From Escherichia coli (GTDB lineage: Bacteria; Pseudomonadota; Gammaproteobacteria; Enterobacterales; Enterobacteriaceae): a stretch of 64,000 nt of DNA. Below are positions 3,296 through 41,437 of the stretch, one piece after another (the stretch's first letter is position 1; every line of letters starts with the position of its first letter). The stretch lies in the NCBI RefSeq assembly GCF_050920415.1, contig NZ_CP169309.1; one strand, given 5' to 3'. The position numbers were made by a program, and so were the translations under genes. The notes beneath the pieces are model-generated. The model searched no databases and had not been told where the DNA came from. It saw nothing but the letters and a program-made list of their open reading frames with translations.

Positions 3296-3750
3296 AACAC
3301 CCTCCAGAGAATATTCACTCACTTTATTTGCATATTAATTCACAATGATGACGTAAATCAATGCAAATCTGCTTACCGACGAATTTCTGGCAAACGGCGG
3401 CATTCTGGAGAGATGAGAGCTAAAAGTCAACTTAATGGTGGTATTTTTTATATTATTTTGTGGCTCATGCATGTTTTGCAGGCATTAAGCGACAAAAAGA
3501 TCATATAACCCGTTCTGGAAAACGCTTGCGCAGCAAGAAGATTGTATAAAATCAAAACGCGTAGAAAAAAGTGGACCAAATGGTCAAAATTTACATTAAA
3601 ACAACAAAAACAGAAGAGAAAACATGTTATTTTTAGCACGCTATACGCTTTTATAAATAAAAAACTCAAAATAAAAGGGCTAAAAATTAAAGCCCTTTAT
3701 AATCAATAAATTAAATACGTTATTTTTGCACCATCACAAATGTTTTGTGG
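3296..3750 (-). promoter_or_regulatory. carAB upstream control region (tandem promoters with arginine/pyrimidine/purine control known in K-12); contains an ARG-box-like palindrome tgcatattaattca near 3328-3341
   Basis: AT-rich ~450-bp intergenic region upstream of carA; the palindrome is visible in the sequence; individual operator sites are not mapped here. Confidence 0.4.
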
Positions 3751-21903: not shown

Positions 21904-23397
21904 TTAGCCCCAGGTCACTGCTTCTGGTTTATCACCTCTGGCTTTCATTAGAGAATCATTATCAATATCACTTTTATATTTTAAAAACTTACCATACATC
22001 TGTTTTTCAATATCTGGTTTTTTACCGATCAGATTAAGTGTTTCAAAACGATCAGATTTAAGATTATAGAGATATTTCGGTTTATTATTGCGATCGATAA
22101 TCATCTTCCAGTCACCATCACAGATCGCCCATTCATCGGTTGGATCATCCTGGAATGGCATATCAATCCCGAAAATTAATGGCTTTTCGCGTTTCAATGC
22201 TTTTTGCTCAAGAACAGGAACCAACGATTCGCCATCAAAAGTGCGGTCCGTCGGTAATTTGAAGTTCATCATTTTCGCCAGCGTAGGCATCCAGTCCAGA
22301 CCATAAACGGGAGTATCTGAAACCATTCCCTTTGGAAGATGCTTTCCGTATTTAATAATCGCCGGAACACGGATGCCGCCTTCCCAAAGATTATCCTTGC
22401 GACCACGTAATCCATCAGTTTCCCCTGCCAAATTCAGTTCATAAACTTTACGTGCTTCACGGGTTACTGGGCCGTTATCACTGGTAAAAATAACGATGGT
22501 GTTATCTTCTTCACCCATCGCTTTGATTTTATCCAGTACTTTTCCAACCTGAGCATCCAGATAACTGATGTTGGCATAATATTCCCCCACACCACGCCAG
22601 GGTTTATCCGCCCAGTCGCCATAAAATAAATCAGGATGCTGCTTCTGATACGCGCTCATATATTGTGAGTACATGTCGAGGTATTTTTTGGGCGAAGCCA
22701 GGGGGCTATGCACTTCGGTAAAAGCGACATAAAGGAAGAAAGGCTTACTATCCTTTTTGTTATCCAACCAGTTAACGACTTCCGAACTGACATACTCACC
22801 ACTCATTTTATCGGCACGAGGTGTGGGTTGCCCGTTACGCAACCAACCCGTCGGATACACCATGCCAAAACGGGGACGCTCCTTCGCATTATCCAGAGTA
22901 GCGTCGGTAACAAAACCCGCCGTATTAACCAGTGAGTAATCAAAGCCCATATCTTTTGCCTGAGGCTGATCGGTACGATCGCCGCCTGCATTCAGATGCA
23001 GCTTACCCATCATTGCCGTGTCGTACCCTTGCGCTTTGAGTAGATTAGCAATCGTGAGTTCATTACGCCCTAATGCCACATCTTTTCCCGTTGGTATCCA
23101 TGAACGTATGCCGGTACGAAATGGCATCCGCCCCGTTAATAACCCCGCTCGCGAAGGAGAACTTAAGGGAGCTGGGGCATAGTAGTCAGTAAATTTGACG
23201 CCCTCCTGGGCAAGCCTGTCAATATTGGGGGTTTTAACGATCTGATGACCATATGTTGCTAAATCGCCATAACCTAAATCATCCGCCATAATAATGACTA
23301 AATTAGGTTGTTTAACCTCTGCGGCTAAGGCAGGACTAAAAGCATTCCCTGTGCAAACTGCAAGGCCGATCAAACTGGCCATTAACGTTTTCTGCAT
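21904..23397 (-). CDS. periplasmic Ser-type sulfatase (arylsulfatase family)
   Basis: 497 aa with a signal peptide (MQKTLMASLIGLAVCTGNAFSPALA), the MADDLGYGD metal-binding start and the sulfatase signature SSPSRAGLLTGR carrying Ser in place of the modified Cys. Confidence 0.85.
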   Translation of the reverse strand: MQKTLMASLIGLAVCTGNAFSPALAAEVKQPNLVIIMADDLGYGDLATYGHQIVKTPNIDRLAQEGVKFTDYYAPAPLSSPSRAGLLTGRMPFRTGIRSWIPTGKDVALGRNELTIANLLKAQGYDTAMMGKLHLNAGGDRTDQPQAKDMGFDYSLVNTAGFVTDATLDNAKERPRFGMVYPTGWLRNGQPTPRADKMSGEYVSSEVVNWLDNKKDSKPFFLYVAFTEVHSPLASPKKYLDMYSQYMSAYQKQHPDLFYGDWADKPWRGVGEYYANISYLDAQVGKVLDKIKAMGEEDNTIVIFTSDNGPVTREARKVYELNLAGETDGLRGRKDNLWEGGIRVPAIIKYGKHLPKGMVSDTPVYGLDWMPTLAKMMNFKLPTDRTFDGESLVPVLEQKALKREKPLIFGIDMPFQDDPTDEWAICDGDWKMIIDRNNKPKYLYNLKSDRFETLNLIGKKPDIEKQMYGKFLKYKSDIDNDSLMKARGDKPEAVTWG

Positions 23398-23417
23398 AAT
23401 TATTCCCTGATAAAAAA

Positions 23418-24178
23418 TTAGAAATCATAACCAAGCATATAAATCATTTGATCGCCAAAGCCATCGTAGCCCAGCTTATTATCGAAATAACGCCACGTCA
23501 CACTGGCTTTCCAGCGAGGATAGAACTTCCAGGCAATAGTTAAACCGCCATTTAACCCGTTCCGACCAAATTGCTGCTCCGTGTAAGCATCGTTCCTATC
23601 CAGTTCTATTTCATTCCAGTTAGATAAAACAAATTTTTCGTCAAATAACATAAATGGCAATACTGCTGTCCAGCCAACAACATAACCATTCCAACCATTC
23701 GTTTGACCATATTTAGCTGATACGTAGTCACCAGATTGATTATGTAATCCAATATACGGTTTACCCCCCCCCATGAACCATTCCAGCCGAGGTAGCCCAA
23801 ACCATAAAACATATCAAGATCGTCACCCCATGAGTTATCCCATTGACCATAGATCTTGCCAAAGAAAGTCATATCAGAGTCAAAGAGTCTGACATGCGTC
23901 ATTGCTGAAACTGTATGATTTCTCCCTGCTACAGCATGATTGAGTACATTACTTTCATAAAATGAGTAAAATTCTGCTTCTTTAAAATTTACCCCAAAAT
24001 CCGCAGTCACTTTCCATACTTCACCACGGTGAGTGTTTACAAATCCACTATTCCAGTCTGCATAACCCGCATTTATTGAACCAAAGGTTCCTTTATATTC
24101 TAATGAAGAATATGCAGGAAAATGATAGATAGCTGTTATCAGGGTACACGCAATAAGAAGTCGTCTTTTGGCAGACAT
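23418..24178 (-). pseudogene. Tsx/OmpK-family-like outer-membrane beta-barrel protein, frame interrupted at a homopolymer tract
   Basis: N-terminal ORF (24178-23606, signal peptide MSAKRRLLIACTLITAIYHFPAYS) and C-terminal ORF (23774-23418, ending GYDF with aromatic-rich strands) are offset by one base exactly within a 9-nt C/G run; one extra G would fuse them as ...WNGSWGGGKPYIG... Confidence 0.6.
23764..23772. repeat. homopolymeric tract (C9 on plus, G9 on the coding strand) inside the Tsx-like gene
   Basis: Read directly: ttaCCCCCCCCCatgaacc. Confidence 0.9.
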
Positions 24179-24679
24179 ATAATATGTTCTCCATTCATTG
24201 TTTTTATGATTCCATAGGAATTAATACACCAGACAATTCATTTTTATTAAGAATGACCAAGCCAGTATATTTAAAGATGACTATCGAAGCGTGATGAAGA
24301 TCGCAGATTACTTTTGCGAACGGGCGGAGAGATATCGTGTTTCAGAAAATGTGTCTGTTTTAAATATCACCCTTTGATTTATAGGCATTTTTCATGATGA
24401 ACTTAGCATTGACTGCTGAACGTATTTCTTTGTCTCTCTATAGTATTACACTAACCTTTAATAATTAATTTCCTTTAGCTATTCACTTTTGATAGAGGAA
24501 AACACCTTTTTTTTGTGAATCCCTGGATATATTTAAGTTAAATAAATTGATGTATTGAAATATTATTCCGTAAAAATGCGAGGCGTCTTCAGAAAAAGAA
24601 TTGATAAAACAGAAGTGAATTAAAAGCGCTGTATAATAGCGGCGGGTGCTTGAGGCTATCTGTCTCAGGCATTAGCTGA

Positions 24680-24745
24680 ACGGCAGATAGAGAAAAGCCC
24701 CGAGTGATATTTTACCATCAACCCGAGGCCCCCTATATGCTGAAC
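24680..24745 (-). ncRNA. sokC: putative Sok-type antisense RNA of the hokC/mokC type I toxin locus (approximate)
   Basis: Inferred from the conserved hok/sok architecture, in which the antisense RNA is encoded opposite the mok start and leader; boundaries not determined from the sequence. Confidence 0.25.
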
Positions 24746-24946
24746 ACATGTAGAGTGCCTCTTACTGACCGTAAGGTCAAGGAGAAGAGAGCAATGAAGC
24801 AGCATAAGGCGATGATTGTCGCCCTGATCGTCATCTGTATCACCGCCGTAGTGGCGGCGCTGGTAACGAGAAAAGACCTCTGTGAGGTTCACATCCGAAC
24901 TGGCCAGACGGAGGTTGCTGTTTTCACGGCTTACGAATCCGAGTAA
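24737..24946 (+). CDS. mokC: mokC, overlapping reading frame that modulates hokC translation
   Basis: In-frame upstream extension (MLNTCRVPLTDRKVKEKRA...) of the hokC ORF, within ORF 24704-24946. Confidence 0.6.
   Translation: MLNTCRVPLTDRKVKEKRAMKQHKAMIVALIVICITAVVAALVTRKDLCEVHIRTGQTEVAVFTAYESE
24794..24946 (+). CDS. hokC: Hok-family type I toxin (small membrane peptide)
   Basis: 50-aa MKQHKAMIVALIVICITAVVAALVTRKDLCEVHIRTGQTEVAVFTAYESE, the canonical Hok sequence. Confidence 0.85.
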   Translation: MKQHKAMIVALIVICITAVVAALVTRKDLCEVHIRTGQTEVAVFTAYESE

Positions 24947-25049
24947 GAGCAACGGCGGGGAGTGATCCCCGCCACTTTACAGGTGCTCGCATATCTTCAA
25001 CGCACCCTATTTTTACCCAAGCCTGCCCACAGGCAGGCTTTTGGGGAGG

Positions 25050-26180
25050 TTAGCGAGTCAGGTCGTCAAAAAACTTCTTCACACCATCAAAGAAGCTCTT
25101 TGAGCGCGGACTGTTGTGCTCGCCGGTTGGGCCACCGAAGCTTTCTTGCAGCTCTTGCAGCAGCTGTTTCTGCTTCTCGTTCAGGCCTACCGGTGTTTCG
25201 ACGACAACGCGGCACAGCAAATCACCCTGTGCGCCGCCGCGGACAGACTTGACGCCTTTACCGCGCATACGGAACAGCTTACCGGTCTGGGTTTCGCCAG
25301 GCACTTTCAGTTTGACGCGGCCATCAAGGGTCGGTACTTCGATTTCGCCCCCCAGCGCCGCCATAGCGAAGTTGATCGGGACTTCGCAATACAGGTTGTT
25401 GCCTTCACGCTCGAAAATCGGGTGCTGTTTAACCTGAACCTGAACGTACAGATCGCCTGCCGGTGCGCCATGCTCGCCCGCTTCACCTTCGCCCGCAAGA
25501 CGGATGCGGTCTCCAGTGTCCACCCCTGCCGGAATTTTAACGGACAGCGTTTTGCTGCGCTCAACACGCCCATGACCATGACATTTGTTGCACGGATCTT
25601 TGATCAGCGTACCGCGGCCCTGACAGTGTGGACAGGTCTGCTGCACAGCAAAGAAGCCCTGGCGCATCTGCACCTGACCAGAGCCATGACAGGTCGGACA
25701 GGTCTGCGGCTGTGTACCTGGTTTTGCACCGCTACCGTGGCAAACGTCACACTCTTCCAGAGTCGGAATGCGGATCTCTTTGGTCACGCCACGTACAGCT
25801 TCTTCGAGGGTGAGCTCCATGTTATAGCGTAAATCAGCACCGCGCGCCGCACGTTGACGACCACGTCCGCCGCCAAAAATATCGCCGAAAACGTCACCAA
25901 AAATATCGCTGAAGTCTGCGCCGCCGCCAAAACCGCCGCCGCCCATGCCGCCTTGCTCAAACGCAGCATGACCATACTGATCGTATGCCGCACGTTTTTG
26001 CGAGTCGGTCAGAACTTCATAAGCTTCCTTGATCTCTTTAAATTTCGCCTCGGCCTCTTTGTCACCCTGGTTACGGTCCGGGTGGTATTTCATGGCCAGG
26101 CGTTTGTAGGCCTTTTTGATTTCACGCTCTTCCGCTGTTTTGGAAACGCCTAAAATCTCGTAATAATCTTGCTTAGCCAT
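25050..26180 (-). CDS. dnaJ: chaperone DnaJ (Hsp40)
   Basis: ORF trimmed to [12 protein letters not shown] (J domain), then a Gly/Phe-rich region and four CxxCxGxG zinc-finger repeats; 376 aa. Confidence 0.96.
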
Positions 26181-26268
26181 CTTTTTTGATTTGCCCCTAG
26201 ATGAATGCACGGGCGGAGAGGAAATTCCCCTTCGCCCGTGTCAGTATAATTACCCGTTTATAGGGCGA

Positions 26269-41288: not shown

Positions 41289-41314
41289 GGTTGTTACCTC
41301 GTTACCTTTGGTCG

Positions 41315-41352
41315 AAAAAAAAGCCCGCACTGTCAGGTGCGGGCTTTTTTCT
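41315..41352 (-). terminator. thr operon attenuator (rho-independent terminator between thrL and thrA)
   Basis: Minus-strand hairpin aagcccgcacctgacagtgcgggctt followed by a T8 run, immediately after the thrL stop. Confidence 0.85.
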
Positions 41353-41358
41353 GTGTTT

Positions 41359-41437
<79 letters not shown>

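Follow-up and report, generated by a model that had tools for sequence, protein, structure and literature searches.

The hokC/mokC/sokC locus in the stretch of Escherichia coli chromosome analysed here (the window, 64 kb in length and in reverse orientation with respect to K-12) is, with a probability that we put at roughly 85%, an ancestral, uninterrupted chromosomal type I toxin-antitoxin locus that carries the complete regulatory architecture of plasmid R1 hok/sok. An IS-free hokC is in itself already known: according to the papers that cite their work (PMC3562002, PMC12214031, PMC5630033, bioRxiv 10.1101/2025.08.07.668861), Pedersen and Gerdes described one in 1999 (Mol Microbiol 32:1090), in strain ECOR24, with a transcript of ~330 nt. 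All positions given below are those of the window unless a K-12 coordinate is named.

The locus, its neighbours and the IS186 site

A 751-bp query around hokC is 100% identical to strain MFDS1022581, for which the RefSeq annotation gives the gene order nhaR, nhaA, an IS1/IS1595-type zinc-binding-domain protein, a sulfatase, a frameshifted OmpK porin, mokC, dnaJ and dnaK. The reading frames at and next to the locus are as follows.

24737 to 24946, plus strand: mokC frame of 69 codons and a stop, overlapping hokC in the same frame and sharing its stop codon; it too falls under Pfam PF01848
24794 to 24946, plus strand: hokC toxin gene, 50 aa, with Shine-Dalgarno (SD) sequence AGGAG at 24780-24784; RefSeq WP_000809168.1 in the 100%-identical strain
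24932 to 24935, plus strand: TACG motif at the hokC Tyr47 codon (TAC then G), with A24933 as the reported target of TadA editing in K-12 hokC mRNA
25050 to 26180, minus strand: dnaJ, the convergent neighbour of hokC, from the list of open reading frames and the RefSeq annotation of the identical strain

The translations of HokC (50 aa) and MokC (69 aa) are identical to the K-12 proteins, and HokC scores 85.5 bits against Pfam PF01848 (cut-off 22), a score which together with the K-12 identity identifies hokC as a gene for a small (~50 aa) membrane toxin of the Hok/Gef family. Against the NCBIfam Hok subfamily model, which was built on other Hok subgroups, HokC scores 46.8, below the cut-off of 73. 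The mok frame begins upstream of hok and ends at the common stop codon, as is characteristic of the family. On the minus strand, a 95-aa open reading frame at 24665-24952 was considered and is regarded as a chance ORF.

Between nhaA and hokC lies an island of ~4 kb (20516-24526) which K-12 does not have, and homology to K-12 restarts at 24526, leaving 118 bp before the start of the hokC transcript. The island contains three annotated features.

20516 to 21781, minus strand: ORF of 421 aa, annotated as an IS1/IS1595 zinc-binding-domain protein
21904 to 23397, minus strand: sulfatase
23418 to 24178, minus strand: frameshifted OmpK/Tsx-like porin

On the other side of hokC, K-12 MG1655 carries IS186A (15387-16731 in its own coordinates) between dnaJ and hokC, where it has entered the loop of a perfect hairpin immediately 3' of hokC with the target duplication GGAGTGATCC, which corresponds to 24959-24968 here. 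The window holds no IS186 between hokC and dnaJ, and hence not the K-12-type interrupted locus: the empty target GGGGAGTGATCCCC lies at 24957-24970, its single occurrence in the 64 kb, and the alignment of window and K-12 is continuous across the K-12 insertion point. A preliminary description of this DNA had reported full hokC and mokC frames, about 100 bp between hokC and dnaJ, and no IS186 copy at the place where K-12 has one. Each of these observations is borne out, as both frames end at 24946 with K-12-identical translations, the gap to dnaJ measures 103 bp (its stop codon being at 25050 on the minus strand), and the alignment and the MG1655 annotation agree on the absence of the element here and its presence in K-12.

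In K-12, IS186A cuts the body of the mRNA from the 3' fold-back element. The insertion is thought to disrupt the fold-back inhibitory element (fbi) of hokC or to remove fold-back inhibition (PMC3562002, PMC12214031), and hokA, hokC and hokE of K-12 are considered inactivated by insertion elements, a view ascribed to Pedersen and Gerdes (1999) by the papers citing them; PMC2887945 holds, on the inactivation of hokC by insertion sequences, only the reference-list entry for that article. Of 5426 complete E. coli genomes, 3814 (~70%), counted as those in which a 201-bp query is covered in one piece, have an uninterrupted junction; the rest break at the K-12 insertion point, the interrupted genomes numbering 1611. 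The IS-free hokC is the usual state in E. coli, and K-12 is derived. Two non-K-12 genomes carry IS186/IS421 at the same bases and with the same duplication GGAGTGATCC, inverted with respect to K-12, and junction-specific queries place the K-12 orientation in ~820 genomes and the opposite orientation in ~939; these two figures together exceed the 1611 interrupted genomes by ~150, an excess that might come from similar IS186 junctions at another hok locus. Both orientations at one hairpin loop suggest a hot spot for repeated insertion, or else inversion in situ.

Transcripts, control elements and predicted folds

The promoters and transcripts of the locus were placed as follows.

24632 to 24637, plus strand: hokC promoter -10 element TATAAT, from the sequence, with a poor -35 element (ACAGAA, 17 bp spacing)
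24644 to 25015, plus strand: predicted full-length hokC mRNA, with +1 placed by homology and the 3' end inferred at the T-run that follows fbi
24752 to 24780, minus strand: sokC promoter, with -35 TTGACC at 24780-24775, a 17-bp spacer and -10 CACTCT at 24757-24752, from alignment with R1 Sok
24687 to 24745, minus strand: SokC antisense RNA, mapped from K-12 sokC b4413, an annotated ncRNA
25020 to 25042, no strand assigned: hairpin AGCCUGCC-CACA-GGCAGGCU followed by UUUU, lying between fbi and the dnaJ stop codon, from the sequence

The TATAAT hexamer is found within gcgctgtataatagcggc at 24627-24644, and the hokC transcript start was placed at G24644 by homology to the 5' end of the R1 hok mRNA and by the start of Rfam model RF01794, which matches 24644-24796 on the plus strand with 120.5 bits (E 6.7e-27). 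The preliminary description was right about the presence of TATAAT but assigned it to the leader, of which it is not a part, being the promoter -10 element at 24632-24637. Similarly, the extent of 24600-24946 that it gave to the locus ends correctly for the reading frames but omits the 3' UTR, from 24947 to ~25015; this end coordinate matters because the interpretation of the locus depends on the hairpin and on fbi, both of which reside in the omitted part. The 3' end of the hokC mRNA could instead lie at the 25020-25042 hairpin, which from its sequence is probably a shared or convergent terminator. A simple promoter and terminator scan of 24200-25200 called neither a sigma-70-like promoter nor a terminator at any of the sites in question, the 25020-25042 hairpin included. 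It missed the hokC promoter because the -35 element is weak, and the sokC promoter because its -10 element (CACTCT) is weak, and as neither was called, both promoters are placed by homology only.

Although RF01794 is named for the sok antitoxin, its match covers the hokC leader, from the first base to the hokC AUG, and not the antisense strand. As SokC is encoded on the minus strand, annotations based on this model can be wrong in both strand and extent. The other Rfam matches above gathering score in the window, all on the minus strand, are the tpke11 sRNA (26181-26258, between dnaK and dnaJ), the threonine operon leader (41314-41433) and the ES003 sRNA (3343-3395). The SokC region itself differs from K-12 at one base (24731), the sokC promoter region is identical to that of K-12, and the predicted SokC fold consists of an 11-nt free 5' tail and a hairpin with a U-rich tail (z-score -3.9). 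With this promoter, tail and terminator hairpin, the DNA opposite the mok start has the appearance of a cis-encoded antisense Sok gene.

The elements that would control translation of the hokC mRNA are all found on the plus strand.

24644 to 24655, plus strand: tac (translational activator), GGGUGCUUGAGG, whose partner is fbi in the full-length fold and ucb in the truncated one
24662 to 24673, plus strand: partner of tac in the metastable nascent hairpin, from the fold of the first 40-50 nt
24695 to 24704, plus strand: ucb (upstream complementary box, the mok anti-SD), pairing with 24722-24729 in the full-length fold or with tac in the truncated fold
24725 to 24729, plus strand: mokC SD region GAGGC, masked by ucb when the RNA is full-length and bound to dcb when it is truncated
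24755 to 24761, plus strand: dcb (downstream complementary box), partner of the mok SD once the RNA is truncated
24954 to 24973, plus strand: 3' hairpin GGCGGGGA-GUGA-UCCCCGCC (as DNA, GGCGGGGA-GTGA-TCCCCGCC), from the folds, its loop holding the empty IS186 target
24995 to 25007, plus strand: fbi (fold-back inhibitory), CUUCAACGCACCC, complementary to tac and followed by a T-run at 25008-25015

The tac/fbi helix comprises 12 pairs with one bulged C (25001). Folded in full (24644-25014), the RNA has a minimum free energy (MFE) of -151.8 kcal/mol and a folding z-score of -7.1, with tac/fbi paired at a probability of 0.99-1.0 and ucb paired with the mok SD at 0.98-0.99, so that in silico the end pairing closes the full-length mRNA while ucb covers the mok SD; both pairings are unchanged for any 3' end from 25008 to 25049. 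Truncated to 24644-24978, the RNA switches to pairing of tac with ucb (probability 0.95-0.98) and of the mok SD with dcb (0.88-0.94). The first 40-50 nt of the nascent RNA are predicted to form a 12-bp hairpin of -17.7 kcal/mol, 24645-24656 with 24662-24673, which ties up tac. A K-12 transcript running into IS186 is predicted to adopt the open form at all four lengths tried, in keeping with the published idea that fold-back inhibition is lost through IS186. We ran the R1-type hok RNA as a control, and its closed architecture was reproduced at full length, but the MFE fold of the truncated control did not show the published open conformation; the folding predictions, including the open truncated fold and metastable 5' hairpin predicted for hokC, are therefore supportive rather than decisive. 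The tac/fbi helix also carries a compensatory change between the two loci, C3-G389 in R1-type hok against U24647-A25004 in hokC.

It had been suggested in the preliminary description that this copy might retain native regulation by Sok and by 3' fold-back elements, that alignment with R1 hok/sok could reveal fbi, tac and ucb, and that point mutations in the folding elements or in the Sok promoter would speak against the idea. Alignment with an R1-type locus carried by one IncFII plasmid located all three elements, every R1-type element is present, which supports retention at the level of the sequence, and no such mutations were found. Only two bases of the transcript before the IS186 site are not those of K-12, and neither breaks a pair: 24658 (A here, G in K-12) gives an A-U in place of a G-U stem pair, and 24731 (C here, T in K-12) is also C in eight other E. 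coli.

By homology with R1 hok, whose mechanism includes a metastable nascent structure (PMC9841398), the ends of the transcript, its processing, the action of SokC and the toxicity of the product would fit together in the following way. The hokC mRNA would start at G24644 from a promoter whose -10 element is perfect and whose -35 element is poor, and its nascent 5' end would be held in the metastable hairpin. Once the 3' end was completed, fbi (24995-25007) would pair with tac (24644-24655) and lock ucb onto the mokC SD, so that the full-length RNA would be neither translated nor bound by SokC. Slow exonucleolytic trimming of the 3' end back to the hairpin at 24954-24973, which presumably protects the end of the truncated mRNA, would remove fbi; with fbi lost, tac would pair with ucb and the mok SD would move into the hairpin that it forms with dcb. 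From this open RNA, mokC and hokC would be translated together, or else SokC (24745 to 24687, minus strand) would bind and the duplex would be degraded by RNase III.

Conservation and the question of activity

The possibility that the locus is a pseudogene, decayed through point mutations in its frames, folding elements or Sok promoter, was rejected at the sequence level: we found nothing in its favour, and the intact, K-12-identical frames, the two transcript differences that break no pair and the invariance of the elements in nine genomes leave it a negligible chance.

That invariance was measured on nine uninterrupted E. coli alleles taken from the divergent end of the hit list and compared over window positions 24520-25420. 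Nucleotide diversity (pi) in this set is 0.010 for the 365-nt transcript, 0.13 for the 124 bp upstream, 0.079 for the 41 bp after fbi and 0.074 for dnaJ third-codon positions, so that the flanks and the dnaJ third positions are ~7-13 times more variable than the predicted transcript. Only 1 of 50 third-codon positions is variable in hokC, compared to 22 of 123 in dnaJ (Fisher p = 0.005), and the untranslated sites of the transcript likewise differ from the flanks (p = 7e-9). As none of the pairing elements, fbi among them, varies between the nine alleles, no covariation was seen within the species; the TATAAT hexamer does not vary either. The low-diversity block spans 24644-25008, with the nearest variable sites at 24641 and 25009. 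This pattern argues for selection on the hokC RNA as a whole, because the conserved block begins and ends at the predicted ends of the transcript.

Low diversity could also have arisen without purifying selection on RNA structure, if the hok paralogues had undergone gene conversion, or if the locus had spread horizontally or been swept through the population recently. Immediately before the hokC -10 element, the DNA (24600-24643) falls into two sharply different haplotypes, one like the window and one like K-12, which suggests recombination in the region, and the comparison comprises nine genomes only. A recombination tract, however, would not be expected to match the predicted transcript ends (24641 and 25009), and the nine genomes were chosen among the most divergent hits; we consider such an origin improbable.

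More serious is the possibility that the locus is intact yet physiologically silent, hokC being so weakly transcribed relative to the level or stability of SokC that the toxin is never released, which would make it an inactive relic of the kind that Pedersen and Gerdes concluded chromosomal hok loci to be. We give this real weight without favouring it. As a recent preprint (bioRxiv 10.1101/2025.08.07.668861) sums up the work of Pedersen and Gerdes, the IS-free hokC of ECOR24 neither mediated post-segregational killing nor became active under rifampicin; the poor consensus fits of both promoters and the tolerance of IS186 disruption by ~30% of E. coli genomes are in keeping with such silence. 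Against it, the transcript, down to the synonymous positions of hokC, is far less variable than its neutral-like neighbours, which is unexpected of a relic, and even in K-12 the hokC mRNA is transcribed and is an editing target of TadA (PMC5630033), with a Tyr to Cys change at ~9% (PMC5630033, PMC12214031). Intact regulatory elements do not mean an active killer module, and the hokC module may be regulated like hok and yet be no killer under the conditions tested.

Going beyond the ancestral, uninterrupted locus with R1-type architecture that we favour, one might propose that in wild E. coli hokC/sokC is functional and under selection, for example through membrane depolarisation triggered by stress or phage, and that IS186 occupation is a recurrent natural knock-down of fold-back control. 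We put this forward tentatively and hold it to be somewhat unlikely in that specific form; it is raised because the whole transcript is constrained, synonymous sites included. The result matters little beyond correct annotation, in that the window shows what a textbook type I locus normally looks like before the insertion. IS-free strains, and not K-12, are nevertheless the right background in which to ask whether chromosomal hok loci act, and the transcript-wide constraint suggests that the question of chromosomal hok function remains live.

Comparison with known hok loci

The nearest relative is hokC/sokC (gef/sof) of K-12, which is alike in its position between nhaA and dnaJ, in its HokC and MokC proteins and in its SokC promoter region. 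It differs in carrying IS186A in the loop of the 3' hairpin, as a result of which the K-12 mRNA has neither the intact hairpin nor fbi. The IS-free hokC/sokC of ECOR24, likened here by way of the papers that cite its description and not from the ECOR24 sequence, is also uninterrupted and possesses fbi, and its transcript of ~330 nt agrees in length with the stretch here that begins at 24644 and stops where the hairpin does, near 24974.

With R1 hok/sok (parB) the window shares the whole order of elements: tac, its metastable partner, ucb, the mok SD, the Sok promoter and dcb, the hok SD, hok, the 3' hairpin, fbi and a U-rich end. In the alignment, a long stem-loop comes after tac and before ucb. 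The full-length R1 RNA has the same predicted closed fold as that of hokC, the R1 3' hairpin (GGCGGGC-GCAG-GCCCGCC) occupies the same position as the hokC hairpin at 24954-24973, and fbi of hokC follows ~20 nt past this GC-rich hairpin and is itself followed by the T-run, which is again the R1-type order. The two loci differ in that R1 hok/sok is plasmid-borne and hokC chromosomal, in substantially different toxin sequences, in a hokC leader that is 18 nt shorter in the first stem-loop, and in the sok -10 element (CACTCT in sokC, TATCCT in R1). They also differ in their reported effect, since R1 hok/sok mediates post-segregational killing, whereas the IS-free hokC reportedly does not.
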